Below, one piece after another: positions 560 through 63,174 of a stretch of DNA of 64,000 nucleotides (position 1 is the first letter of the stretch; each line of letters begins with the position of its first letter). The position numbers and the translations under genes were made by a program. This DNA is from Cytophagales bacterium (GTDB lineage: Bacteria; Bacteroidota; Bacteroidia; Cytophagales; UBA9547): NCBI GenBank assembly GCA_004294265.1, contig REAG01000117.1, forward strand, positions 540 to 64,539, in the 5' to 3' direction. Below the pieces are notes generated by a model that was not told the DNA's origin, searched no databases, and saw only the letters and a program-made list of their open reading frames with translations.

Positions 560-3500
560 ATGACAACGCAACAATATATTGACAATATAAACAAACGCTA
601 CAAACTTGGAAATGCAACCGAGCATACTTTTCGTGGCGATTTGCAACAACTTTTAGAAAGTTTAGTGCCTGAAATAAGAGCGACCAACGAACCTAAAAGA
701 CAATCTTGCGGAGCTCCTGACTACATTCTGACCAAAAAAGAAATTCCAGTTGGTTTTATAGAAGCCAAAGACATTGGCGACAAAGACCTTGAAGGAGCTA
801 AGAAAACTGGAAATAAAGAACAGTTCGACCGCTACAAGGCTTCGCTAAACAACTTAATTTTTACCGATTATTTAGATTTCCATTTATATATTGATGGCGT
901 TTTTATTACAAAAATCGCTATTGCTGAAATTTCTCCCTCTCCTTTGGGGAGAGCTGGAGAGGGGGTTATCGTTCCCCTGCCCAACAACTTTGCAACTTTT
1001 ACAAATCTCATCAAAGATTTTTGTACACACGTTGGGCAGACCATAAAAAGTTCAAAAAAACTAGCAGAAATAATGGCAGGCAAAGCCAGATTACTTTCGG
1101 ATGTGATTGAAAAATCTTTAACCAGTGACGAGACCCACAACGAAGACAGTACCTTAAAAGATCAAATGATTGCTTTTAGGCAAATATTAATTCATGATAT
1201 TACCCCCAAAGGTTTTGCCGATGTGTATGCCCAAACCATCGCTTATGGTATGTTTGCAGCTCGTTTGCACGACCCAACTTTGGAGACTTTTAGCAGACAA
1301 GAAGCAGCAGAACTTATTCCAAAATCAAATCCGTTTTTACGCAAACTGTTTGGCTACATAGCTGGTCCTGACATTGACGACCGCATAAAATGGATTGTAG
1401 ATAGTTTGGTAGATATATTTTTGGCTTGCAATGTTGAAGAAATTTTAAAAAACTACGGAAAGCAATTCACCTCCTCCTCTGGGGGAGGACGGGAGGGGGC
1501 TGACCCCATCATCCATTTTTACGAAACATTTTTGAGTGAATACGACCCAGCACTAAGAAAAGCAAAAGGCGTTTGGTACACACCGCAACCCGTAGTAAAT
1601 TTTATTGTACGGGCTGTAGATGATATTTTAAAAACAGAATTTGATTTACCACAAGGGCTTGCTGACACCAGCAAAACAAAAATAAAGGTTGATATTCAAG
1701 GCAAAAAAACAGAACAGGAAGTTCATAAAGTGCAAATATTGGACCCTGCCACGGGTACAGGAACTTTTCTTGCCGAAGTAGTAAAACATATTCATAAAAA
1801 GTTTGAAGGACAAAAAGGGATTTGGAGCAATTATGTAGAAAACGATTTATTGCCACGAATTAATGGTTTTGAGCTACTTATGGCAAGTTACGCCATGGCA
1901 CATTTAAAATTAGATTTGCTTTTAAATGAAACAGGTTATTCTCCCTCCCCGATGGGGAGGGCTGGGGTGGGGTTTCAACGCCTTCGAGTTTATCTTACTA
2001 ATAGTTTAGAAGAAAGCCACCCAGATACAGGAACTTTATTTGCAAATTGGTTAAGCACAGAAGCCAATGAAGCCAATCATATCAAGAGAGAAACGCCCGT
2101 AATGTGTGTCATTGGCAATCCGCCTTATGCAGTAAGTTCTACAAACAAAGCAACATGGATAGAAAAACTTACAAAAGATTATAAAAAAGGGCTGAACGAA
2201 CGAAATATTCAACCGCTTTCGGATGATTATATTAAGTTTATTCGTTTTGGGCAGCATTTTGTAGAAAAAAACGGCAGTGGAATTTTGGCATACATTTCTA
2301 ATAATAGTTTTTTGGATGGTATTATTCACCGCCAAATGCGTAAGAATTTATTAGAATGTTTTGACACTATTTATATATTGGATTTACATGGGAATATTAA
2401 GAAAAAAGAAATTTGTACCGATGGAAGTCCAGATCAAAATGTTTTTGACATTATGCAAGGTGTTTCTATCAATATTTTTGTAAAAACAGGCAAGAAAAAG
2501 CAAGGCGAATTAGGCAAAGTTTTACATATTGATTTGCAAGGAAAACGACAATTCAAGTTTGATTTTTTGCTCAATAATTCATTAAAATCTGTTAGTTGGA
2601 ATAATTTACAAAACGACAATTTAAGTTATTTTTTTAGTAATAAACAATTTGATACAAGTGGCGTGTATGAAAATGGATTTAAGCTGAATGAATTGTTCGG
2701 TGAAAACAACGCAGGTTTAGTAACTTCGAGAGATAGTTTTATAATTCAAAACTCTGAAAATGAAGTAAAAAAAACGACACAAGATTTTGCTTACTTAGAC
2801 TCTGAAATTGCACGCAGAAAATACAATTTAGGAAAAGATAGCCGAGATTGGACAGTTAAAAACGCTCAAAAAGATTTAATTGCCCATAATCTTGATACTC
2901 AAAATATCAAACCCATTTTATACAGACCATTTGACATAAAATATTTGTATTATACTGCCAAATCCAAAGGATTTATTTCATACCCAAGAAACGAAATATT
3001 AAGGCATTTGAAAAATGATAATTTTGCTTTAATAACAACAAGACTTTTAAGTTCAACTTTATTCAGCCACTCTTTTATAAGTAATATTTTTGTAGATAAA
3101 TGTACGATTTCTAATCGAGGAAAAGAAACTAATTATGTATTCCCACTTTATCTTTATCCAAAACCAATAAATGAAATTCAAGAAGATGATTTTCAAAACA
3201 AATTGGCTCGATTGGAAGAATCTAAAGTGATTTATGAAAGTGCAAAAAAAGCGTTTATTCAAGTTCAAAAAATGTTTTCGGCAGTTTCAAATCCAGATAA
3301 AGAATTACTTACTTATTATAATCAACAGGTTAAAAACTTAAAGAAACTAGAACTTGAAGTAGAAAAATTTAAAATTCAGCTAGCAAATTCACAAGCAAAA
3401 CCATTATTTGAATCTGAAATTAAACGTAAACCCAACTTAAACCTAGCAATTATAAAACAAATAGCAGATGCGCTAGGCATACCCACCATGTTACCCAACG

Positions 3501-4021
3501 GAGAAGCCCCCTTCGGGGGTTTGGGGGCTCTTGATATTTTAGATTATATCTATGCCGTTTTACATTCGCCAACATACCGAGAAAAATACAAAGAATTTTT
3601 AAAAATAGATTTCCCTAAAATACCTTATCCAAAAACCTATAAGGTCTTCGAAGACCTTATAGGTTTGGGCAGCCAATTAAGACAAATCCATTTATTAGAA
3701 AGCCCAACAATTGAAAAATACATAACGCAATATCCCGAAGATGGAAACAATGTAATTACAAAACCACGTTTTTCTCCCTCTCCTTCGGGGAGGGCTGGGG
3801 TGGGGCTTGTTTATATAAACGAAACTCAATATTTCGATAATGTTCCACAAATAGCTTGGGATTTTTATATTGGCGGTTATCAACCCGCCCAAAAATGGCT
3901 CAAAGACCGCAAGGATAAAAAATTAGAATTTGATGATATTTTGCATTATCAAAAAATCATAGTTGCTTTGACAGAAACGGACAGATTGATGAAAGAAATT
4001 GATAATATTGAGATTGAATAA
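560..4021 (+). CDS. Type IIG single-polypeptide restriction-modification enzyme (N-terminal PD-ExK nuclease, gamma-class N6-adenine methyltransferase, C-terminal specificity domain)
   Basis: Nuclease-like motif GAPDYIL...GFIEAKD. AdoMet motif I ILDPATGTGTFL and catalytic motif IV VIGNPPYAVSS. C-terminal YIYAVLHSPTYREKYKEFLKIDFPKIPYP...IGGYQPAQKWLKDRKDKKLEFDDILHYQKIIVAL resembles the Type ISP/IIG specificity-domain tail. The 1153-codon ORF is intact. Confidence 0.85.
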   Translation: MTTQQYIDNINKRYKLGNATEHTFRGDLQQLLESLVPEIRATNEPKRQSCGAPDYILTKKEIPVGFIEAKDIGDKDLEGAKKTGNKEQFDRYKASLNNLIFTDYLDFHLYIDGVFITKIAIAEISPSPLGRAGEGVIVPLPNNFATFTNLIKDFCTHVGQTIKSSKKLAEIMAGKARLLSDVIEKSLTSDETHNEDSTLKDQMIAFRQILIHDITPKGFADVYAQTIAYGMFAARLHDPTLETFSRQEAAELIPKSNPFLRKLFGYIAGPDIDDRIKWIVDSLVDIFLACNVEEILKNYGKQFTSSSGGGREGADPIIHFYETFLSEYDPALRKAKGVWYTPQPVVNFIVRAVDDILKTEFDLPQGLADTSKTKIKVDIQGKKTEQEVHKVQILDPATGTGTFLAEVVKHIHKKFEGQKGIWSNYVENDLLPRINGFELLMASYAMAHLKLDLLLNETGYSPSPMGRAGVGFQRLRVYLTNSLEESHPDTGTLFANWLSTEANEANHIKRETPVMCVIGNPPYAVSSTNKATWIEKLTKDYKKGLNERNIQPLSDDYIKFIRFGQHFVEKNGSGILAYISNNSFLDGIIHRQMRKNLLECFDTIYILDLHGNIKKKEICTDGSPDQNVFDIMQGVSINIFVKTGKKKQGELGKVLHIDLQGKRQFKFDFLLNNSLKSVSWNNLQNDNLSYFFSNKQFDTSGVYENGFKLNELFGENNAGLVTSRDSFIIQNSENEVKKTTQDFAYLDSEIARRKYNLGKDSRDWTVKNAQKDLIAHNLDTQNIKPILYRPFDIKYLYYTAKSKGFISYPRNEILRHLKNDNFALITTRLLSSTLFSHSFISNIFVDKCTISNRGKETNYVFPLYLYPKPINEIQEDDFQNKLARLEESKVIYESAKKAFIQVQKMFSAVSNPDKELLTYYNQQVKNLKKLELEVEKFKIQLANSQAKPLFESEIKRKPNLNLAIIKQIADALGIPTMLPNGEAPFGGLGALDILDYIYAVLHSPTYREKYKEFLKIDFPKIPYPKTYKVFEDLIGLGSQLRQIHLLESPTIEKYITQYPEDGNNVITKPRFSPSPSGRAGVGLVYINETQYFDNVPQIAWDFYIGGYQPAQKWLKDRKDKKLEFDDILHYQKIIVALTETDRLMKEIDNIEIE
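932..967. repeat. in-frame GC-rich palindromic insert, copy 1 (encodes SPSPLGRAGEGV)
   Basis: tctccctctcctttggggagagctggagagggggtt. Exactly 12 codons (codons 125-136), GC-rich in an AT-rich gene, with a pyrimidine arm and purine arm that can pair. Confidence 0.8.
1469..1504. repeat. in-frame GC-rich insert, copy 2, diverged (encodes TSSSGGGREGAD)
   Basis: acctcctcctctgggggaggacgggagggggctgac. It has the same CT-run followed by G-run architecture as copies 1, 3 and 5, but is diverged and its boundaries are approximate. Confidence 0.55.
1940..1975. repeat. in-frame GC-rich palindromic insert, copy 3 (encodes SPSPMGRAGVGF)
   Basis: tctccctccccgatggggagggctggggtggggttt. Exactly 12 codons (461-472). 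CCCTCCCC and GGGGAGGG form an 8-bp stem around the 3-nt loop gat. It lies between methyltransferase motifs I and IV. Confidence 0.85.
3500..3529. repeat. in-frame GC-rich palindromic insert, copy 4, short variant (encodes GEAPFGGLGA)
   Basis: ggagaagcccccttcgggggtttgggggct. 10 codons. CCCCC-ttc-GGGGG forms a hairpin, with an alternative AGCCCCC/GGGGGCT pairing. It resembles the 3' half of copy 5. Confidence 0.55.
3773..3808. repeat. in-frame GC-rich palindromic insert, copy 5 (encodes SPSPSGRAGVGL)
   Basis: tctccctctccttcggggagggctggggtggggctt. Exactly 12 codons (1072-1083), in the same orientation and reading frame as copies 1 and 3. Confidence 0.85.
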
Positions 4022-4830: not shown

Positions 4831-5008
4831 TTTTAAAACCGTTTAAATTTGCATTTTTTGAAATATACCAAACCCCCTATCACAGTTTTTGAGCAAGTTA
4901 TCATTTTTTAAGTTCAATATTCCAAAAGCTTATTAAATTGCAAAATGAATATCAAGCTCAAACAAATCCCAAATCAGCAAAAAGCTGAAGAGTTATCAAA
5001 ACTGTTAA
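4831..5008 (+). repeat. direct repeat A: duplicated recJ upstream region plus first ~22 recJ codons
   Basis: Aligns by eye to 6231-6407 with about 10 differences over ~175 nt. The alignment includes the ATG (4945 vs 6344) and MNIKLK(Q/P)IPNQQKAEELSK. Confidence 0.85.
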
Positions 5009-5070
5009 AAGAAATAGAAAATAGTTTAAGAGAAAATTATAATCTAAAATATAATTGTTTAGTATCATAA
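4945..5070 (+). pseudogene. recJ 5' fragment (41-codon leader ORF made by the duplication)
   Basis: Translates as MNIKLKQIPNQQKAEELSKLLKEIENSLRENYNLKYNCLVS*. The first ~20 residues match RecJ at 6344, then the sequence diverges. The TAA at 5068-5070 is 1 nt before the ATG of the next gene (taacATG). Confidence 0.55.
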
Positions 5071-5071
5071 C

Positions 5072-6073
5072 ATGCAATACATACAAGAAATAAAACAAAT
5101 ATTAGCCAATGCAAGGCAAAAAGCCTACACCGCAATCAATGCTGCTATGACAGAAGCATATTGGAAGATAGGCGAAAAAATAGTGCTGGAAGAGCAAAAC
5201 GGAAAAAATCGTGCAGCGTATGGTGAAAGTATTTTAAAAGATTTGTCTATTGCATTAACACAAGAGTTTGGTAAAGGGTTTTCGTATGCTAACCTACGTA
5301 ATTTTAGACAATTTTATTTAACTTATCCCGACCCAGAGATTTGCTACGCAGTGCGTAGCAAATTGACATGGACGCATCATCGTTTGATAATGAGAGTAGA
5401 AAATACGGATGCTAGAAATTATTATCTAAATGAATGTGAAAATCAAAATTGGAGCTCTAGGGTGTTGGAACGAAATATTAATACTTTTTACTATCAAAGA
5501 ATTTTATCTACCAATGCACAATTTCCTGCAACACAGATAAGGGAAATTGAAACTCAAAATATTAAAGATTTCATTAAAGACCCTTACATATTTGAGTTTT
5601 TAAATATAGAACAACCCCATTATGCAAAAGAGCTAGAAATAGAAACCGCATTGATTGAAAATCTACAATCGTTTTTGTTAGAATTAGGCAAAGGTTTTTC
5701 GTTTGTCGCAAAGCAATTCAGAATAAGCACAGAAACAAGTCATTTTTATATAGACCTGGTTTTTTACAATTACATATTGAAATGTTTTGTAATCTTCGAC
5801 TTGAAAACCACCAAATTAACCCATCAAGACGTGGGACAGTTAGATATGTATGTGAGAATGTTTGACGACTTGAAAAAGCAAGACAACGACAACCCCAGTA
5901 TTGGCATCTTACTCTGTGCCGAAAAAGATGAAACCGTAGTGAAATATTCGGTATTGGCAGAAAATAAACAGCTTTTTGCCACCAAATATTTACCTTTCTT
6001 ACCTACCGAGCAAGAACTGATTGCCGAAATTGAAAGGGAAAAACTAAGCATCAAACAAAAACAAAATGAGTAG
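5072..6073 (+). CDS. YhcG-like PD-(D/E)XK nuclease family protein (DUF1016)
   Basis: N-terminal ARQKAYTAINAAMTEAYWKIGEKIV..EQNGKNRAAYGESILKDLS, central IKDPYIFEFL and the nuclease core ELGKGFSFVAKQFRI...YIDLVFYNYILKCFVIFDLKTTKLTHQDVGQLDMYV are characteristic of YhcG/DUF1016. Confidence 0.85.
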   Translation: MQYIQEIKQILANARQKAYTAINAAMTEAYWKIGEKIVLEEQNGKNRAAYGESILKDLSIALTQEFGKGFSYANLRNFRQFYLTYPDPEICYAVRSKLTWTHHRLIMRVENTDARNYYLNECENQNWSSRVLERNINTFYYQRILSTNAQFPATQIREIETQNIKDFIKDPYIFEFLNIEQPHYAKELEIETALIENLQSFLLELGKGFSFVAKQFRISTETSHFYIDLVFYNYILKCFVIFDLKTTKLTHQDVGQLDMYVRMFDDLKKQDNDNPSIGILLCAEKDETVVKYSVLAENKQLFATKYLPFLPTEQELIAEIEREKLSIKQKQNE

Positions 6074-6230: not shown

Positions 6231-6407
6231 TTTTAAAGCCGTTTAAACTTGCATTTTTTGAATATACCAAACCCGCTATCACAGTTTTTGAGCGAATTAT
6301 CATTTTTTAGGTTCAATATGCCAAAAGCTTATTAAATTGCAAAATGAATATCAAGCTCAAACCAATCCCAAATCAGCAAAAAGCTGAAGAATTATCAAAG
6401 TTATTAA
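6231..6407 (+). repeat. direct repeat B: native recJ upstream region and 5' coding end
   Basis: Partner of 4831-5008. It continues into the full-length recJ ORF. Confidence 0.85.
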
Positions 6408-8041
6408 ATATCAATATTTTACTTTCAAACTTATTAATACAAAGAGAAATAGATAATTTTGAAAATGCAAAATCATTTTTCAGACCAAATCTAAATGAAA
6501 TTCACAATCCATTTTTGATGAAAAATATGGATAAAGCTGTGGAAAAAATAATAAAAGCCATCGAAAATAAAGAAAAAATATTAATTTATGGCGATTATGA
6601 CGTGGATGGAACTACTGCGGTTGCGTTAGTTTTTGATTTTCTAGGCAAATATCATACCCATATTGACTATTATGTTCCTGATAGATATACAGAAGGTTAC
6701 GGAATTTCAACTTTAAGTATAGATTTTGCAAAAGAAAATAATTTTTCGCTTGTAATAGCCCTAGATTGTGGCATTAAATCAAATGAAAAAATAAATTATG
6801 CTAACACTTTAGGAATTGATTTTATCATTTGCGATCATCACGAGCCAGGTGAAGAAATTCCAAAAGCGCTTGCCGTTCTTGATGCCAAGCAAAACGATTG
6901 TAACTATCCATACAAAGAACTTTCGGGTTGTGGCGTTGGGTTTAAATTAATGCAAGCATATTGTATTAAAAAAAACATTGAATTAGATAAATTATTTCCG
7001 TATTTAGATTTGCTTTGTGTAAGTATTGGAGCAGACATAGTGCCAATAGACGGAGAAAACCGTATTTTTTGCTATCATGGATTAAAAATAATCAATGAAA
7101 ACCCACGTTTTGGAATTAAATCTTTAATAGGAATATCAGGATTTAAAAAGCAATTTAAAATTTCAGACGTTGTTTTTAAACTCGCTCCTAGAATAAATGC
7201 CGCAGGAAGAATTCATCATGCGAAAGCTGCCATAAACTTACTCATTTCAAATACAGAAGAAGAAGCAGAAAAATGGGCTACAAAACTTAATGATAGTAAT
7301 ATTTACAGAAAAGAATTAGATAAAATAATCACAGAAGAAGCCATAGAAATGATAGAAAATCAAGTTGATTTTCTATCATTAAAATCAACAGTTTTATTTA
7401 AAAATGATTGGAACAAAGGCGTAATCGGAATTGTGGCTTCTCGTTGCATAGAAAAATATTATAAGCCAACCATTATTTTAACAGAATCTAACGGAATTGC
7501 AGCAGGATCGGCTCGTTCAGTTCATGGATTTGATTTATACAATGCCATTTCAAATTGCTCAGACTATTTAGCACAATTTGGAGGACACACCCATGCGGCA
7601 GGCATGACTTTAAAAATTGAAAATATTGAAAACTTTAGAAAAGCATTTGAAAAACAAGTTTCAAAAACAATAAAAGAAGACTCATTAACGCCACAAATGC
7701 TTGTCGATATGGAAGTTCCACTTTCATTTGTTAGTTTAAAAACAGAAAAAATAATTTCACAAATGCAACCTTTCGGACCAAAAAATATGACTCCCGTTTT
7801 TATTACTAAAGGATTAATTGACGGAGGAAACAGTCGAGTTGTAGGTGAAATTCATCTAAAATTAGATTTACATTGCCCCACTTCAAATATAAAAATTGCA
7901 GGTATTGCATTCCAAAAAGGAAATTTAATCAATCAAATTCAACAAAAACACCCATTTACAATCTGTTACACTTTAGAAGAAAATATATTTAACAATATTA
8001 AAACCGTCCAAGCTCAAGTCAAAGAAATCATATTTGAATAA
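6344..8041 (+). CDS. recJ: single-stranded-DNA-specific exonuclease RecJ
   Basis: DHH-family motifs GDYDVDGTTA, LDCG and ICDHHEP, plus the DHHA1 motif FGGHTHAAG. 565 aa. Confidence 0.95.
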   Translation: MNIKLKPIPNQQKAEELSKLLNINILLSNLLIQREIDNFENAKSFFRPNLNEIHNPFLMKNMDKAVEKIIKAIENKEKILIYGDYDVDGTTAVALVFDFLGKYHTHIDYYVPDRYTEGYGISTLSIDFAKENNFSLVIALDCGIKSNEKINYANTLGIDFIICDHHEPGEEIPKALAVLDAKQNDCNYPYKELSGCGVGFKLMQAYCIKKNIELDKLFPYLDLLCVSIGADIVPIDGENRIFCYHGLKIINENPRFGIKSLIGISGFKKQFKISDVVFKLAPRINAAGRIHHAKAAINLLISNTEEEAEKWATKLNDSNIYRKELDKIITEEAIEMIENQVDFLSLKSTVLFKNDWNKGVIGIVASRCIEKYYKPTIILTESNGIAAGSARSVHGFDLYNAISNCSDYLAQFGGHTHAAGMTLKIENIENFRKAFEKQVSKTIKEDSLTPQMLVDMEVPLSFVSLKTEKIISQMQPFGPKNMTPVFITKGLIDGGNSRVVGEIHLKLDLHCPTSNIKIAGIAFQKGNLINQIQQKHPFTICYTLEENIFNNIKTVQAQVKEIIFE

Positions 8042-8042
8042 A

Positions 8043-8271
8043 GGGAACCTCTAAAAACCCCAATATTATTTTTAAAAACCCCACCCAAACCCTCCCCAAG
8101 TGAGAGCAATGTCGTTAAGTTAAGATGCTCGAAAGTCCCTCCCCCTTTTTGGATTCTGCGTCTTCGTAGCAGAACTTGGATTTAGGGAGGGGTTTAATGA
8201 AAGTAATTTCTTTAACTTAACGACATTGCAAGTGAGAGAGCTTCATCGGAATTGAATTTTTAGGAGTTCAC
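8043..8271 (+). repeat. MITE-like GC-box element, composite/nested long copy (229 bp)
   Basis: Its ends match the 119-bp family (gggaacctctaaaaacc...tttttaggagttcac). The interior is a 122-bp unit bounded by an 18-bp perfect inverted repeat (8106-8123 / 8212-8229) and a 10-bp direct repeat caagtgagag (8097-8106 / 8229-8238). That unit carries an inverted second copy of the family core hairpin. Confidence 0.75.
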
Positions 8272-8281
8272 TAAATACAAA

Positions 8282-9187
8282 TTAAACTATAATATTACTT
8301 TTCTTATGAACGTGTTCGGGTAACTGACCGCCTCTTAAAATTGTGTTATTATTAAATTTTAAACCTAAATCAGTAGTTTCATTTAAAGTCCAATCCTCTT
8401 GTTTCATCATTCCAGTTTGTCCAAAAGCCAAAAGAGCATTTTCATAACATACTTTATTTATTGAATCAGCATCAAAACCACGTTCATTCATTAAACTAGC
8501 AGTTTTAGGAACTGCCAAAGGATCACTCACACCCCAATCGGCAGCACTATTGATGATAATTCTTTCAGTTCCATATTGCTTTACAATTTCTACCATACGT
8601 TCATTGCCCATTTTTGAATAAGGATAAATTGTAAATGCTGCCCAAAAACCTCTATCTAAAACCTCTTTTACAGTTTCTTCATTATTATGGTCAATTATTA
8701 CTTTACTAGGTAGTAAACCATGTTCTAAAGCTACATTCATGCTTTTAGTTGTGCCATTCTTTTTATCCCTATGAGGTGTATGAACTTGCACTAGAGTGTC
8801 CGTTTGTTTCGCTAACTCGAGCTGCAATCTATAAAATTTATCTTCTAAAGGCGTTTGTTCATCATAACCAATTTCTCCAATACCTACAACATGTTCTTTA
8901 CCTATAAAAAGAGGTAAAATGTCCATAACTTGTTCTGCTAATGCCTCATTGTTTGCTTCTCTAGAATTTAAACCCATTGTGCAATAATGTTGAATACCGA
9001 ACTGAGAAGCCCTAAATCTCTCCCAACCAATCAGACTTGAAAAATAATCTTTAAAAGTACCAACTGAAGTACGAGGTTGACCAAGCCAAAAAGAAGGTTC
9101 AATAACAGCAACTATTCCAGCTTTCGACATAGCTTCGTAATCATCTGTCGTTCGACTAACCATGTGAATGTGAGGATCAATAAACAT
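8282..9187 (-). CDS. TatD-family / amidohydrolase-fold metal-dependent hydrolase
   Basis: MFIDPHIHM has an HxH metal-binding start, with later VQVHTPH and IIDHNNE. The ORF track extends to 9259, but the ATG at 9187 (MFIDPHIH) matches the usual family N-terminus. Confidence 0.65.
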   Translation of the reverse strand: MFIDPHIHMVSRTTDDYEAMSKAGIVAVIEPSFWLGQPRTSVGTFKDYFSSLIGWERFRASQFGIQHYCTMGLNSREANNEALAEQVMDILPLFIGKEHVVGIGEIGYDEQTPLEDKFYRLQLELAKQTDTLVQVHTPHRDKKNGTTKSMNVALEHGLLPSKVIIDHNNEETVKEVLDRGFWAAFTIYPYSKMGNERMVEIVKQYGTERIIINSAADWGVSDPLAVPKTASLMNERGFDADSINKVCYENALLAFGQTGMMKQEDWTLNETTDLGLKFNNNTILRGGQLPEHVHKKSNIIV

Positions 9188-9320
9188 ATATAAATTAGAA
9201 TAAGAACAAAAGTAAAGGGCTTGAAACGAAACCATGGTTTCTCTCAAGCCCTCTAACATATATTTAAGTATTTACGTTATTAATTAGAATACAAATAACA
9301 TGCCAAACTACTTATAAGTA

Positions 9321-9464
9321 TCAGTTAAAAATTTCTTTTTTAACTGATTTATTTTTCTTTTCCCATGGATTAGTAGTTTTCCGAGACATATCATAAACAA
9401 AATATCCAACAAAAAGAAAAAAAACAATAGAAAGTAAGATAAATAAAAATCTTTTGAGACTCAT
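9321..9464 (-). CDS. possible small membrane protein (47 aa)
   Basis: My own translation gives MSLKRFLFILLSIVFFLFVGYFVYDMSRKTTNPWEKKNKSVKKEIFN*. It has one clear TM helix followed by a basic tail. It is below the ORF-track cutoff and no homology was recognised. Confidence 0.25.
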   Translation of the reverse strand: MSLKRFLFILLSIVFFLFVGYFVYDMSRKTTNPWEKKNKSVKKEIFN

Positions 9465-9496
9465 AAATTAAAACTTAATATTAAAGTAATATAAAT

Positions 9497-9535
9497 AATA
9501 AATGGCAACTATGAAAAACATAATTGCCATTTATT
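9497..9535 (-). terminator. hairpin downstream of the cytochrome oxidase operon
   Basis: 12-bp perfect stem aataaatggcaa / ttgccatttatt with a 15-nt loop, 20 nt after the coxI stop. The flanks are AT-rich on both sides. Confidence 0.45.
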
Positions 9536-9554
9536 TTTTAAAAAAATATAGTTA

Positions 9555-11396
9555 TTAATGAATAATTTCAGATTTAGCATCCTCTATCTCGTGAGGTAGA
9601 TTACTTTCTGGAGTATGATTTAAAGGTACAGTTTGAGGTATAAAATCACTTTCAGCACCTGGTTTTGAATAATCATAAGGCCAACGATAAACACTTGGTA
9701 TTTCACCCTCCCAATTTCCATGACCAACATTAACAGGAGTAGTCCATTCTAAAGTATTTGATTTCCAAGGGTTTTGAGTTGATCTACGTCCTTTAAAGAT
9801 GCTATAGAAAAAGTTAAAACCAAAAATCATTTGAGATGAAAATGTTATTATTGCTGCTACACTGATAAACATATTCAAATCGCCAAATGTACTAAAAGCA
9901 TCATAACTTGTAAATGAATAATATCTACGAGGGAAACCAGCTATACCAATATAGTGCATAGGAAAGAAAACCATATAAACTCCTATAAAAGTCATCCAAA
10001 AATGAACATAACCTAATCTTTCATCCATCATTCTACCAAACATTTTAGGAAACCAATGATAAACACCAGCCATAAATCCAAAGAAAGAAGCGGAACCCAT
10101 AACCAAATGAAAATGTGCTACAACATAATAAGTATCATGTAATTGTATATCAAGTGCTGAATTTCCTAATATGATACCAGTTAAACCACCAGAAATAAAC
10201 AATGAAACTAATCCAATAGAAAACAACATGGCGGGTGTAAAAACAATATTACCTCTCCAAAGTGTTGCAATATAATTAAATGCTTTTACTGCTGATGGAA
10301 CTGCAATTATGAGCGTTAAGAACATAAAAACTGAACCTAAGAAAGGATTCATGCCCGTTATAAACATGTGATGAGCCCATACAATGAATGAAAGGAATGC
10401 AATACCTAAAATTGAGCCAATCATTGCTCTATAACCAAATATTGGTTTGCGAGAATTTGTAGCTATAATTTCAGAAGTAATACCTAAAGCTGGTAAAAGT
10501 ACAATATAAACCTCAGGATGACCTAAAAACCAAAATAAATGTTGGAATAAAATTGGAGATCCTCCCATGTTATGCAAAGCTTCACCACCGATATAAATTT
10601 CAGATAAATAGAAGCTAGTTCCAAAGCTTCTATCGAATACTAACAACAAGGCTGCTGAAAACAAAACGGGAAAAGACAAAACACCAATAATTGCTGTTAT
10701 AAAGAAAGCCCATATTGTTAATGGTAATCTTGTAAAGCTCATACCATTAGTTCTCATATTAATAATAGTTGTAATATAGTTTATAGAACCTAACAATGAA
10801 GAAACTATAAAAATTGCCATAGAACATAACCATAAAGTCATTCCTAATCCTGACCCTGACATAGCTTGAGGTAAAGCACTTAAAGGAGGATAAATAACCC
10901 AACCTCCTGAAGCAGGACCTGTTTCTAAAAACAATGAAACAAACATAAGCATTGATGAAACAAAGAAAAACCAATATGATAACATATTAAGAAATCCAGA
11001 AGCCATATCTCTTGCTCCAATTTGCAAAGGAATTAGAAAATTAGAGAAAGTTCCACTCAAACCAGCAGTCAATACAAAGAAAACCATAATAGTACCATGC
11101 ATTGTAACAAGTGCAAGATAAAAAGATGGATCTAACTTACCATTTTGAATCCACTCTCCCAAAATAGGTTTTAACCACTCTAAATTTGCATCAGGAAAAC
11201 CCAATTGTAAACGAAATAGAATAGAAAATCCTCCGCCAATAAGAGCCCAAATCAGACCAGATATTAAAAACTGTTTTGAAATTACTTTGTGATCTTCACT
11301 GAAAATATATTTTTGAACGAAATTTAATTCATGATGATCATGCTCGTGTTCATGTGCATGAATGTCATGTGCTGAAATTGTTGCTGTTGCTGACAT
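9555..11396 (-). CDS. ctaD: cytochrome c oxidase subunit I (heme-copper oxidase)
   Basis: FWFLGHPEVYIVLLP, WAHHMFITGM, VAHFHLVMG and 12 or more TM helices. Confidence 0.95.
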   Translation of the reverse strand: MSATATISAHDIHAHEHEHDHHELNFVQKYIFSEDHKVISKQFLISGLIWALIGGGFSILFRLQLGFPDANLEWLKPILGEWIQNGKLDPSFYLALVTMHGTIMVFFVLTAGLSGTFSNFLIPLQIGARDMASGFLNMLSYWFFFVSSMLMFVSLFLETGPASGGWVIYPPLSALPQAMSGSGLGMTLWLCSMAIFIVSSLLGSINYITTIINMRTNGMSFTRLPLTIWAFFITAIIGVLSFPVLFSAALLLVFDRSFGTSFYLSEIYIGGEALHNMGGSPILFQHLFWFLGHPEVYIVLLPALGITSEIIATNSRKPIFGYRAMIGSILGIAFLSFIVWAHHMFITGMNPFLGSVFMFLTLIIAVPSAVKAFNYIATLWRGNIVFTPAMLFSIGLVSLFISGGLTGIILGNSALDIQLHDTYYVVAHFHLVMGSASFFGFMAGVYHWFPKMFGRMMDERLGYVHFWMTFIGVYMVFFPMHYIGIAGFPRRYYSFTSYDAFSTFGDLNMFISVAAIITFSSQMIFGFNFFYSIFKGRRSTQNPWKSNTLEWTTPVNVGHGNWEGEIPSVYRWPYDYSKPGAESDFIPQTVPLNHTPESNLPHEIEDAKSEIIH

Positions 11397-11424
11397 TTTA
11401 TGTTTTTTAAATAATTAATAATTT

Positions 11425-12441
11425 TTACTTTATAGCTATGTTTTTACTATCTAATTGAATATTTGCTAAATATTCAGGATTTTTTTTCAAAAAAGCTTCT
11501 TGAGATGAATACCATTTTTCAAAGTCTTCTGGTTCATCTACAACTAAAAGAAATTTCATCCCAAAATGCCCTTTTCCACAAACTTCCGTACAAGCTAATT
11601 CATATTTAAAATCTGATTTTCCTGTAATAGACTTCATTTCATCAGTTGTATATATTGGTGTAAACCAAAATGTGGTGGGCATACCAGGAACAGCGTCCAT
11701 TTTTTGCCTAAAATGAGGCAAGAAAACTGAATGTAATACATCTCTTGCTCTTATTTTAAACTGAACTGGTTTACCTTTAGGAATATGAATTTCTCTAGGA
11801 AGAAAGTCATCATAACTTAATTTGTCCGAAAAATCTATCCCAACTTCATTCGTAGCGTCAATCATTTTATAATTGTAAGTTCCTAACTTACCATCTTTTC
11901 CAGGATAACGAACAATCCAGTTGAATTGTTTGCCTGTAATTTCTAAAACAACAGCATCTTTAGGTGCTGGAGCTGTTATATCTGTCCAAGTTTTGTAACC
12001 ATAAATTACCAAAACAGTTAATACAATAGCAGGAATTACAGTCCAAATAATTTCCAATTTATGATTATCTGGATAAAAGAATGCTTTTCTATCTTCTTTA
12101 TATTGATATTTATAAGGAAAATAAAATAATAAAACATTAGTCGCTACAAAAGCAATCATAATAATGATTGTTATAATCCAAAAAAGATTATCAGTAATTA
12201 TACCATGTTCCGAAGCAGGTTTAGGTAAGTAAAATTCAGAAAATTTACTTGCTGACCAAAATATTAATGCCAAACCTACTATAAAAAATATTGGAAATAA
12301 AACAGCATTAATACTATTGCTTGAACCAACACGTTTATTATACGATCCTTTCAATATGGATAAAAGCGAACCAACTCTAACCAATAAAAAGAAAATAATT
12401 AACAATAATATTACAGTTGCAGAAATTATAAATGTATTCAT
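11425..12441 (-). CDS. ctaC: cytochrome c oxidase subunit II
   Basis: Two N-terminal TM helices and a CuA centre, HSVFLPHF...CTEVCGKGHFGM. Confidence 0.9.
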   Translation of the reverse strand: MNTFIISATVILLLIIFFLLVRVGSLLSILKGSYNKRVGSSNSINAVLFPIFFIVGLALIFWSASKFSEFYLPKPASEHGIITDNLFWIITIIIMIAFVATNVLLFYFPYKYQYKEDRKAFFYPDNHKLEIIWTVIPAIVLTVLVIYGYKTWTDITAPAPKDAVVLEITGKQFNWIVRYPGKDGKLGTYNYKMIDATNEVGIDFSDKLSYDDFLPREIHIPKGKPVQFKIRARDVLHSVFLPHFRQKMDAVPGMPTTFWFTPIYTTDEMKSITGKSDFKYELACTEVCGKGHFGMKFLLVVDEPEDFEKWYSSQEAFLKKNPEYLANIQLDSKNIAIK

Positions 12442-12499
12442 TAAATTATTATTTAAGTACTATACAAACTGTTATAGCACGTTGTTTTAAAATTTTAAA

Positions 12500-13798
12500 T
12501 TAAATATTATGTTGAATAGCTTCTTTTAGAAAAGGATGATTAGCTGGTATCAATTTTGCTTTAGTTAATGAATTAGTAACAACCATAATAAATAAAGTAC
12601 CGAATGAAATAGCTGTACCTAATTCTATAAGACCTAAATCACTAGTTCCTTTAGTTGTTCCTGGCATAATCATCAAATAAAAGTCAAACCAATGACCTAT
12701 AATAATTGCTATTGTTACAACTTTAAGCATTGATAGCTGTCTTTTTGCATCTCTAGTCATTAAAGCAAGAAATGGAAATGCAAAATTAATAAATAAATTA
12801 AAGAACAAAAGAAAAGTATATTTACCATCAAAACCTCTAATTCTATCAATAAAATAAACAGTTTCTTCAGGTAAATTTGCATAGAAAATCAACAAAAATT
12901 GACTAAACCAAATATATGTCCAAAAAATACTGAAAGCAAACATAAATTTACCTAAATCATGAAAATGATTCATATTCATCGCTTTCAAATATCCATTTTC
13001 TTTCAAAAACACACAAATCAAACATATTGTTGATAATCCAGTAACCCACCAGCTAGCAAAAACATACCATCCAAACATAGTTGAAAACCAATGTGTGTCA
13101 ATAGACATAATCCAATCCCAAGCTGCCATTGGCGTTGTTACTGCAAAAATAATTATAAATACAGCTGATAGATAACCTGATTTATGATAAAAAGATTCAC
13201 CACCTGTTAAATCTTCTTGTAATGAATAAGAACGTATTTTAGACCAAACAAAGTACCACAAACCGAAAAATGCAATCATTCTACCTAAATAAAAAGGCAA
13301 ATTTAACCACGCAGCTTTTCCCGCTATGATAGAATCATAATTTTCAGAGCCTTTTTCCATAATTCCATGATGCAACCAATGAAACAATAAATCATGATGT
13401 CCTAAAAAGTAATTTGCTAGAAAAATAACAACTATTATTGCACCACCAACTGGAATAAAAGCACCCATAGCTTCAGGTATTCTTTTCAAGACAGAAGACC
13501 ATCCAGCCCAAGCTACATACTGTACACAAACGAAAAACAAACCCATGGCTGAAATACCAGTAAAAAATATAGCATTTTGCCATAAAACTGCCCAAATACG
13601 CATCATAAATGAAGGACCATGACCATGAGATCCCTCAGAAGCTTCAGCGACTTCGTGACCATGTCCGCCAAACATAGCAAACAGAACTCCAACTGTAAAC
13701 AATAAAACACCAACTATTAAAGCGATATTTAAGTTCTTTTTAAATTTTGATGATAGAGACAACTGCTCATCTACCGATACTTCTATATGATGTAACAT
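12500..13798 (-). CDS. actF: Alternative Complex III subunit ActF (quinol:cytochrome c oxidoreductase quinone-binding subunit 2)
   Basis: Polytopic NrfD-like membrane protein in the last position of the actABCDEF order, immediately upstream of coxII as in flavobacterial ACIII-cox clusters. Confidence 0.7.
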   Translation of the reverse strand: MLHHIEVSVDEQLSLSSKFKKNLNIALIVGVLLFTVGVLFAMFGGHGHEVAEASEGSHGHGPSFMMRIWAVLWQNAIFFTGISAMGLFFVCVQYVAWAGWSSVLKRIPEAMGAFIPVGGAIIVVIFLANYFLGHHDLLFHWLHHGIMEKGSENYDSIIAGKAAWLNLPFYLGRMIAFFGLWYFVWSKIRSYSLQEDLTGGESFYHKSGYLSAVFIIIFAVTTPMAAWDWIMSIDTHWFSTMFGWYVFASWWVTGLSTICLICVFLKENGYLKAMNMNHFHDLGKFMFAFSIFWTYIWFSQFLLIFYANLPEETVYFIDRIRGFDGKYTFLLFFNLFINFAFPFLALMTRDAKRQLSMLKVVTIAIIIGHWFDFYLMIMPGTTKGTSDLGLIELGTAISFGTLFIMVVTNSLTKAKLIPANHPFLKEAIQHNI

Positions 13799-34013: not shown

Positions 34014-34090
34014 TTATGTAGTTTTTAAAATGTATACGTAAACATATCAAAACAAAACTTAAATTAAAAATAAATAATTAAAATACTAAT

Positions 34091-34209
34091 AGGAACCCCT
34101 AAAAACCTCCATTCCGTTAAAGCCCTCCCACTTGGATTCTGCGGTTTCGTAGCAGAAATTGGTTTGGGTGTGGTTTTTAAAAATAATATTGGGGTTTTTA
34201 GAGGCTCCC
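34091..34209 (-). repeat. MITE-like GC-box element, 119-bp copy (reverse orientation)
   Basis: aggaacccctaaaaacc...ggtttttagaggctccc. It aligns over its full length (about 85% by eye) to the reverse complement of 62186-62304, including the core hairpin ggattctgcggtttcgtagcagaa. Confidence 0.85.
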
Positions 34210-34223
34210 AAATTTCATTTAAA

Positions 34224-34264
34224 GAAAAAAAAGCCTTTTCGTTTCCGAAAAGGCTTTTTTTGAT
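34224..34264 (-). terminator. rho-independent terminator of groES-groEL (bidirectional shape)
   Basis: 13-bp perfect stem aaaagccttttcg / cgaaaaggctttt with loop tttc, flanked by A-run and T-run, about 20 nt after the groEL stop. Confidence 0.8.
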
Positions 34265-56604: not shown

Positions 56605-56699
56605 GTGAACCTCTAAAAACCCCAATATTATTTTTAAAAACCCCACCTAAACCAATTTCTGCTACGAAACCGCAGAATCAAAAAGCAGGGGGACGTTCC
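56605..56699 (+). repeat. MITE-like GC-box element, truncated copy (~95 bp)
   Basis: gtgaacctctaaaaaccccaatattatttttaaaaaccccacctaaaccaatttctgctacgaaaccgcagaatc is near-identical to the left two-thirds of 62186-62304. The right arm is degenerate. It starts on the base after the TAA of the epimerase gene. Confidence 0.8.
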
Positions 56700-62049: not shown

Positions 62050-62185
62050 TTTATTGAAACTATTTTTTATAGAAAAGAAATTTATTTGTATTTTTACAAT
62101 AAATAGTAAAAGAATGTAAGCCATACACATAAAAGTATTTATAGCCATTCGTTGTGGGTATTCGTTCATAAAATTTGCCACTTTA

Positions 62186-62304
62186 GGGAACTTCTAAAAA
62201 CTCTAATATTGTTTTCAAAAACCCCACCCAAACCAATTTCTGCTACTAAACCGCAGAATCCAAGTAGGAGGGATTTATCGGAATTGAGGTTTTTACGAGT
62301 TCCC
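62186..62304 (+). repeat. MITE-like GC-box element, 119-bp reference copy
   Basis: 16-bp imperfect terminal inverted repeats, gggaacttctaaaaac and (reverse complement) gggaactcgtaaaaac. Internal GC boxes ccccaccc and ggaggg flank the hairpin ttctgc-tactaaacc-gcagaa. Confidence 0.85.
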
Positions 62305-63174
62305 TATTATGTTTAACAATTTTATCTTTTTATTTACTTTTGTTTTTGAATAAATAATAGTCATGATAACAAATTCAAAATTTTCTATTCTTAAAATCGA
62401 AATATCTTCGTAAGATTTGTGTGTTTTAGCATTATAAATTAAATTACCTGATAGGTTATGAATAAAAATTTCTACTTGTTCGTTTAACACATTATCAAAA
62501 TTAAGTTCTCCATTTTTTATAAAAATCTCAGTTTTATTTAGTTCTAACTTCTCTAAACTACTTGGGTTTTGAAATCGTATTTCATAAGCCAAATTTGAAC
62601 CCTAACAACCTACTGAATCTGTTATATAAGCATTGATTTGAAGACTTTCTCCAGAAGACGTTAGGGTTTGTTTATAAAAAGCAGGGTTTGAAAACGGCTT
62701 TTTTATTCCTTCCGATGGCTCCCATTTAAGAAATGCAAGAGGTGCTATTCCGCCAACAATCGGTATAGACTTTAATTCCATACTGTCACCAGGCGATAAA
62801 TATCTAGTAAAAAAAGCCGTTGTATATGCAAATTGAGAAACTCTAATATTTATACTATCTTTATAAATATTACTATTTTGAGAAACTGTTAAAACAAACT
62901 TTAGCCATTCATTTGATGGTAAATTTGAAACAATAGGGCTTGCTACAGTCGTATTGCTTAGGAAATTTGATGCCGTATAGGTGCGATTTCCTAGTATATA
63001 TTTGCAAGACCAATTGTAAGACACATTTAAAGAACCACCCGTAATGGTTAATTTATTTCCTATTTGTGGATTAATTAAATTACTGCAAAAGGTAGTGTCT
63101 TTACCTAAATTAATTTGACCAAACCCAATTTTTGACATCATGACAAGGATTAGTATTATTGTTAATTTTTTCAT
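62293..63174 (-). pseudogene. T9SS-secreted protein gene interrupted by a single in-frame TAG
   Basis: ORFs 62602..63174 (signal peptide MKKLTIILILVMMSKIGFGQ) and 62293..62592 (T9SS C-terminal-domain-like FQNPSS...VEIFIHNLSGNLIYNAK...) are in the same frame. Only one TAG separates them (62602-62604): ...DSVGC*GSNLAYEIRF.... Confidence 0.55.

Follow-up and report, generated by a model that had tools for sequence, protein, structure and literature searches.

A family of short inverted-repeat elements at gene ends in a Cytophagales bacterium, probably a non-autonomous transposable element

A 64,000-nucleotide stretch of contig REAG01000117.1 (here called the window), from a metagenome-assembled genome (MAG) labelled "Cytophagales bacterium", contains four copies of a short repeat, canonically 119 bp long, which is bounded by inverted repeats, built around GC boxes and a small hairpin, and found mostly where genes end. 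What kind of element is this, and why does it lie at stop codons? [quoted passage not shown] The initial annotation had called them MITE- or REP-like (REP, repetitive extragenic palindrome). The first label is apt, the copies being small, dispersed, bounded by inverted repeats, polymorphic between strains at one site and, in two of four complete copies, accompanied by perfect 4-bp flanking duplications; the second is not, given their untagged ends and these same duplications. The family is previously undescribed, but the kind of element is ordinary, and only its interchangeable modules and its placement at stop codons set it apart. The proteins of the window belong to the MAG named above (TAG57672.1 and others, from a contig of 65,588 bp; locus tags beginning EAZ27_), the GC content of the uncultured host is 30.7%, and PH2015 sample names point to cyanobacterial mats as its habitat.

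Architecture and dispersal of the type-I family

Reading all four intervals bore out the coordinates first assigned to them. Two copies are complete and 119 bp long: copy A (62186..62304, + strand; inverted repeats at 62186-62202 and 62288-62304, core hairpin at 62238-62258), which is the most diverged copy, and copy B (34091..34209, - strand), which lies in reverse orientation. Copy C (56605..56699, +) had been described as truncated; only its left arm and core are indeed intact, but the right arm (gggggacgttcc) is degenerate rather than cleanly cut. Copy D (8043..8271, +), entered as a long composite, is a composite but more than a long copy, in that its type-I arms (8043-8091 and 8239-8271) enclose a second element of 122 bp. 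The inverted-repeat shells are named type I for that common to A-D, type II for that of the element nested in D (element II) and type III for one on a relative's contig (L001).

The canonical 119-bp plan begins with a 17-bp inverted repeat (GGGAACCTCTAAAAACC), an A/T-rich spacer, a C-box (CCCCACCC) and CCAA, has at its center the hairpin TTCTGC-TACGAAACC-GCAGAA (6-bp stem, 9-nt loop), and continues through CCAA, a G-box (GGGAGGG) and a spacer to a 17-nt end complementary to the opening one. The terminal inverted repeats, reported at first as imperfect over 16 bp, are imperfect over 16-17 bp with 14-15 of the 20 outer positions complementary; A, B, D and a sixth copy in a sister MAG (L002, below) each have GGGAACCTCTAAAAACC and its complement as their two ends. 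As the initial annotation also had it, the ttctgc-N9-gcagaa hairpin is conserved, being unchanged in every copy, and the 85-95% identity estimated by eye measures 86-92% among the full copies A, B and L002, with the arms of C and D at 81-96% to the other copies. Complete copies fold as long imperfect hairpins, better than shuffled sequences do (z = -3.0 to -4.6). The elements A-D range from 95 to 229 bp, contain no open reading frame (ORF) with a start codon and match no family. Each strand has a single frame that runs open across the whole 119 bp (e.g., EPLKTPILFLKTPPKPISATKPQNPSGRALTEWRFLGVP), as at 62152-62316 (+) and 34088-34225 (-) of the window. A small-RNA family as explanation was dropped after Rfam gave no family match: at gathering thresholds the whole window yielded tRNA only, and the 700 nt around copy A, taken to E values of up to 10, gave only noise (14-17 bits as against gathering thresholds of 66-70).

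All four copies were first seen in one 64-kb window, which could suggest a local segmental duplication, or a chance likeness of low-complexity A/T-rich intergenic DNA. We give that explanation hardly any credence, and the counts refute it. The 23-nt core pattern TTCTGCTACNAANNCGCAGAATC has four matches in the window where 100 shuffles predict 0.00, and the left-end 19-mer is present at five ends where none is expected; sequences flanking the four copies are unrelated to each other. Profiles of the whole element and of the core, run with nhmmer over the 64 kb, detected no additional or decayed copies. A segmental duplication is excluded because the family extends beyond this region, with copies on another contig and in a sister MAG. 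The fifth copy, on another contig of the same MAG, is known from a protein record: a search of 5.8 billion proteins with the element peptide returned a single match, EAZ27_09540, annotated on a contig of 13,204 bp as a hypothetical protein of 72 residues but in fact a spurious ORF called on an element copy. It is assigned to the same MAG because genes of the window carry the tags EAZ27_02385 and EAZ27_02390. The sixth copy, complete, came from an exact-match core scan of 185,579 species genomes (one per species; the window's own MAG lies outside that collection), which found four loci in three related MAGs: a type-I element in the sister MAG PH2015_01D_33_11 (L002), and the core in other contexts in PH2015_06S_32_163 and WN_Cytophagales_18. 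Two core matches in JGI metagenomes were discarded as chance hairpin matches in unrelated coding or high-GC sequence. The core scan of viral contigs, plasmids and phages gave no matches, and nothing points to an origin from a phage or plasmid.

Assemblies of related strains break inside the copies. Five contigs from Logan, each belonging to a different sequencing run (L005, L013-L016), stop 29 nt into copy C, and L006 stops at the epimerase stop codon beside it; L012 stops 24 nt into D, L017 starts within the core of B, and L020, which carries the same copy A insertion as the window, stops in the right end of A. Such breaks are the usual signature of a multi-copy repeat, and the family thus explains why short-read assemblies in this Cytophagales lineage end at particular gene ends. 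Taken as a whole, the type-I family is lineage-restricted and narrowly distributed.

Insertion sites and the exchangeable interior

Occupancy of the recJ/tatD gap was compared with contigs from four other samples, reached via members of the 90% RecJ cluster. Copy D is present in L012 and absent from L009, L010 and L011, where the two genes are 19 nt apart; the window has 240 nt between them. L009 and the window align by BLAST up to 8041 and again from 8273, bracketing the element at 8043-8271. The insertions differ in age, because sample SRR12360573 is empty at D (L009) yet carries copy C (L013). No empty site was found for copy A: L020 is filled there, and L018, L019 and L021, from a relative, are uninformative, their gene order downstream of the AraC gene being different.

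Target-site duplications were looked for at the complete copies. They are perfect, flush and 4 bp long at D (TAAA at 8039-8042 and again at 8272-8275, with the stop codon of recJ lying within the left one) and at L002 (TGGA/TGGA). Copy A has no clear duplication, its flanks (TTTA/TATT) sharing at most TA, and copy B is flanked by ATTT and ATTA. By our arithmetic a perfect 4-mer match arises by chance at ~0.7% of sites at this base composition, and two perfect, flush 4-mers among four testable copies are unlikely to be fortuitous. A TA duplication of the IS630/mariner type was considered and rejected, as it fits copy A only.

The early statement that the window has no transposase holds: no transposase domain was found in its scanned ORFs of at least 100 residues or, for the remainder, among precomputed Pfam marks on orthologues in related-strain contigs, and neither a transposase nor any other coding function was found in or beside the copies. 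Under the MITE explanation, a transposase encoded elsewhere in the genome, which we infer to be of the DDE type, would recognize the 17-bp inverted repeats and move the element by a cut- or copy-and-paste process, duplicating 4 bp of target upon insertion. Copies would persist mainly where they are harmless, at gene 3'-ends and above all in convergent gaps, and the A/T-rich target would often include or neighbor a TAA stop codon, which the element's own TAA could replace.

Copy D shows a second layer of insertion. Its center (approximately 8075-8106) has the GC-box arrangement CCCCACCC-AAA-CCCTCCCC-AAGTGAGAG without the ttctgc hairpin, which occurs in reversed orientation (8152-8174, minus strand) within element II (8107..8228, +; 122 bp). 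The latter has 19-bp inverted repeats, GCAATGTCGTTAAGTTAAG, provided that G-8106 and C-8229 are included, and is bounded by the perfect 10-bp direct repeat caagtgagag at 8097-8106 and 8229-8238. Another genome (L003, 4828-4728) has a second element II with 100% identity over 49 + 52 nt, no hairpin, the same GC-box target and the 10-bp duplication ccaaagggag. Both duplications are perfect, and the two differ from each other at three of ten positions; their match within each composite and their difference between composites indicate that element II was inserted twice independently. Both insertions went into the corresponding position of the core's G-box, CCAARNGRGAG. Element II is therefore a second non-autonomous element, which prefers the GC-box repeat as its target, and it offers an example of repeat-into-repeat targeting, in which a 10-bp-duplicating mini-element has hit the same GC box twice.

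The interior of these elements is a mosaic. An alignment of nine instances defines a core of ~50 nt (C-box, (T)AAA(T), CCAA-TTTCTGC-TACNAANNC-GCAGAAT-CCAA, G-box) that is kept inside three different inverted-repeat shells: type I (GGGAACCTCTAAAAACC) in the window copies and L002, type II (GCAATGTCGTT[A/T]AGT) in the inner element of D and a variant in L004, and the third in L001 (~824-995; MAG PH2015_06S_32_163), whose CAGGGCTTCCGC... shell has CAGGGCTTCCGCATTTAAAAC ends. The core is thus shown to be a separable module shared among shells, and exemplifies the exchange of modules between unrelated MITE shells. A partial second core lies ~100 nt from the L001 element, the CAGGG ends of which resemble the termini of the ISAs1 family. 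The two copies of element II, from the window and L003, differ only centrally, with the 25-nt hairpin in the window and GGAG in L003, and a like alternation between the hairpin and GGGGAGGG (reverse strand) separates A, B and C from the center of D, which matches GGGGAGGG-CT-GGGGTGGGG with two mismatches. An inversion model for this swap between the window's D and L003 was rejected, the intervening sequence not being inverted.

The GC boxes also occur by themselves, as ~35-nt mini-palindromes of the form CTCCCTCCCC-N3-GGGGAGGG-CT-GGGGTGGGG, with the architecture of the D center and, but for the added hairpin, of the cores of A, B and C. One of them, CTCCCTCCCC-GAT-GGGGAGGG-CT-GGGGTGGGG (1929..1975, +), lies in frame in a Type ISP/Eco57I-like DNA methyltransferase gene (560-4021, +), which has sister minis at 921-967 and 3762-3808 and a degenerate one at ~1475-1500; the minis encode SPSPxGRAGxG. 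The gene has four in-frame insertions of 7-8 codons, at 921-967, ~1460-1500, 1929-1975 and 3762-3808 (SPSPLGRAGEGV, SSSGGGREGA, SPSPMGRAGVGF and SPSPSGRAGVG), three of which are GC-box minis, at four loop positions where most of ~120 aligned homologues have none. The LlaBIII structure in the PDB aligned too distantly to judge the SPSPxGRAG segments, and the matter was settled with closer homologues. In a more distant homologue from another organism (L022, 1501-4929) degenerate GC boxes occur at two of the same sites, because of which the insertions may be old and may have travelled with the gene.

These observations raise the alternative that the mobile or selected unit is not the 119-bp shell but the small core, i.e., the 25-nt hairpin together with the CCAA on either side, the ~35-nt GC-box mini, or both. 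Such modules would spread without a known transposase, possibly coupled to replication or repair, into each other, into shells and into genes; the shells would merely be landing places and the 119-bp element just one carrier. The single core within three shells, the pair of type-II elements identical over 49 + 52 nt save for hairpin versus GGAG, the hairpin/GGGGAGGG alternation, and the in-frame minis at four methyltransferase loops all speak for it. On the other hand, the hairpin swap is a replacement (25 nt for 4-6 nt) and not a clean insertion with a duplication, and CCAA belongs to the conserved module and is therefore not a target duplication; there are only nine cores, with identical stems, which common descent plus recombination between elements explains equally well, and the two sites shared with L022 leave room for old insertions. 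On balance we consider this alternative rather unlikely. If the core were self-mobile, it would extend mobile repeats of less than 40 nt, a poorly understood class, to a new phylum, and the mat habitat would permit a cross-phylum comparison of mini-elements. If not, it adds one to the lineage-restricted MITE families, and only its mosaic core and its nested element, which targets a repeat, are out of the ordinary.

Several points weigh against the MITE explanation as well. Only six type-I copies are known in total, and the 4-bp duplication is perfect in only two of the four complete ones. No cognate transposase or parent insertion sequence (IS) was found, the inverted-repeat motif occurring only in the elements themselves across the window and the relatives' loci examined. 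At recJ/tatD the strains diverge by 3-7% around the site, and where the element sits the empty site of L009 has 10 unrelated bases (gcccaaaatg); since this is not clean pre-insertion sequence, an element-precise insertion is consistent with the comparison but unproven. Movement of the plain 119-bp form is not demonstrated, because the polymorphic copy is a composite. Finally, a core with an invariant stem and a semi-conserved loop has been kept inside different shells, and this conservation could reflect a function which plain selfish spread does not explain.

Gene ends, stop codons and transcription

Three of the four copies occupy convergent gaps, as had been noticed at the outset: recJ/tatD (D), aldose-1-epimerase/dnaE (C) and AraC/type IX secretion system (T9SS) cargo (A). 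Such gaps make up only 440 of the 6,223 intergenic bases (7%), and within so small a sample the bias toward gene ends is genuine. Copy B occupies a tandem gap, 74 nt past the groEL stop codon and 78 nt before the start of an alpha-galactosidase gene. Copy C begins directly after the epimerase TAA and copy D 1 nt after that of recJ, in agreement with the initial annotation, which had counted these two contacts; copy A also abuts a stop codon, so that three of the four copies touch one, and A supplies it. The TAA of the T9SS-cargo gene (62293-62295) falls inside the right inverted repeat of A, and a second in-frame TAA follows immediately past the element; the corresponding minus-strand ORF (62293-62592), which is the C-terminal part of that gene, ends in ...NII-GNS*. 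The element's own TAA reads GGG AAC YCN TAA and allows a copy that lands in a gene's final codons to survive, this gene being an instance. Repeats that supply stop codons are known for REPs (PMC3733652), and the present family adds an example among mobile elements. It also misleads gene callers, which pick up the spurious EAZ27_09540 and the altered C-terminus (element-encoded GNS*) of the T9SS-cargo protein.

The gene-end pattern may reflect tolerance or preference. Tolerance, at sites where an insertion damages no promoter, can produce it in combination with A/T-rich targets containing TAA, and the bias is presumably caused by selection. An alternative is that the host keeps the elements as RNA structures at 3'-ends, either bidirectional terminators or hairpins that stabilize the 3'-untranslated region (UTR). 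The convergent gaps and stop-codon contacts would agree with this, as would the folding of complete copies; seen by eye, each copy carries on its reverse strand a C-box...G-box stem followed by T5 (GGGTGGGGTTTTT), with a structured "loop" of 30-40 nt, and MITEs beside coding regions are transcribed and alter mRNA stability (PMC3733652). The terminator scan, however, flagged this stem in D only, as a weak minus-strand site, and scored nothing in A, B or C, though the genome does use canonical terminators, such as the hairpin of groEL (34231-34262). Copy B lies beyond that terminator, with its terminator-like strand facing no gene. Because the stem is invariant it offers no covariation, and the cores of relatives occur in tandem and divergent gaps too. 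The recJ/tatD copy is missing in related strains, with no substitute in their 19-nt gap; since the empty-site strain manages with so short a gap, the element is not needed there. RNA structure as the reason for retention is accordingly unlikely. On the MITE explanation any terminator or hairpin effect on transcripts would be incidental, and a host function, though conceivable, finds no support.

Some further features of these loci may be recorded. The reverse strands of B (34163-34191, +) and D (8089-8061, -) contain a Bacteroidetes-type promoter-like motif, TTTG-N17-TAATATTG, which points out through the left inverted repeat, antisense to the gene ending there. Among the copies the promoter pattern scan recorded only these two, with 21 matches in the whole window; the TAATATTG box is seen by eye in C and L002 also, C being unscored with TTTA in place of TTTG. 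The T9SS-cargo gene (62293-63174, -) is interrupted by an in-frame TAA at 62602-62604, which changes Glu to a stop at codon 191, whereas the strain variants P0146 and P0147 are intact proteins of 293 residues; the split marks a pseudogene or else a fault in the assembly of this MAG.

At the other end of the window, the identity of L009 is 93% on the recJ side (6271-8041) as against 97% on the tatD/cox side (8273-12772), and because it jumps exactly at the insertion site, a recombination boundary coincides with copy D. Upstream of recJ, L009 has wholly different genes (an N6-methylase and a helix-turn-helix (HTH) protein). The window has there a 178-nt direct repeat, 87% identical (4832-5009 and 6231-6408), the second copy of which overlaps the recJ start; the repeats enclose a YhcG/DUF1016 PD-(D/E)XK nuclease gene (5072-6073). 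This region looks like a variable island of defense genes with a duplicated recJ 5' region.

Comparison with known systems

The whole element is a long imperfect palindrome, reminiscent of a REPIN, the stem of its hairpin is invariant and the loop, which is semi-conserved, contains CTAC (GTAG on the other strand), and no DDE transposase was found. These features would suit a REP, REPIN or IS200/IS605-type element (palindrome-associated transposable element, PATE), moved as single-stranded DNA by an HUH transposase (RAYT or TnpA) which recognizes the hairpin. REPs, however, are short stem-loops with an unpaired GTAG or CGTC at the foot, and REPINs consist of two inverted units (PMC3733652); here GTAG lies at the loop/stem junction and is not an unpaired tag at the foot of a stem. 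The termini are plain, non-palindromic inverted repeats with no GTAG- or CGTC-tagged terminal stem-loop. Single-strand transposition of the IS200/IS605 kind makes no flanking duplications, and PATEs, which have sub-terminal hairpins, have neither these nor inverted repeats, while both are present here, the duplications being of 4 bp and 10 bp. Nor does the window contain a RAYT or TnpA gene. An HUH mechanism is thus very improbable.

The mosaic of a few short, interchangeable motifs recalls the bacterial interspersed mosaic elements (BIMEs) of E. coli, but BIMEs are made of GTAG-tagged REP units and have no inverted repeats and no target duplications. IS1397 and ISKpn1 reportedly target REPs, and element II likewise inserts specifically into a palindromic repeat, although it is a non-autonomous element of 101-122 bp and not a full IS. 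Rickettsia palindromic elements (RPEs) are small palindromic repeats which can sit in frame in functional genes (PMC3733652). The GC-box minis in the methyltransferase gene do the same, and the type-I frame is open on each strand; in contrast to RPEs, no type-I copy was seen within a gene (A takes the place of the final codons and stop only), its host is a free-living member of the Bacteroidota, and there is no sequence relation. Heterocystous cyanobacteria possess small dispersed repeats of ~21-27 nt, nested in each other, in other repeats and in genes, which no enzyme is known to mobilize. The hairpin of 25 nt and the in-frame GC-box insertions of ~24 nt show a similar behavior, but the cyanobacterial repeats belong to another phylum and have another sequence, and independent movement in the present case rests on two allelic pairs.

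The closest description is that of the bacterial MITEs, such as Correia/NEMIS of Neisseria, RUP of Streptococcus pneumoniae, ERIC/YPAL of Yersinia and Nezha of cyanobacteria, which like the present family are non-coding, have terminal inverted repeats, adjoin coding regions and vary between strains; the likeness is one of description, with no sequence relation apparent. Correia elements make a TA duplication, and that seen in the type-I family is 4 bp. In general, bacterial MITEs are non-coding, measure 70-300 bp, have inverted repeats of 15-30 bp, form long hairpins and are presumed to be mobilized in trans (PMC3733652). Within the Cytophagales, MITECca01 of the endosymbiont Cardinium has an IS982-family parent, ISCca4 (PMC9769881), whereas the type-I elements, from the same order, have no known parent IS, and their interior is not the remnant of a deleted transposase but a GC-box/hairpin module shared with other shells.

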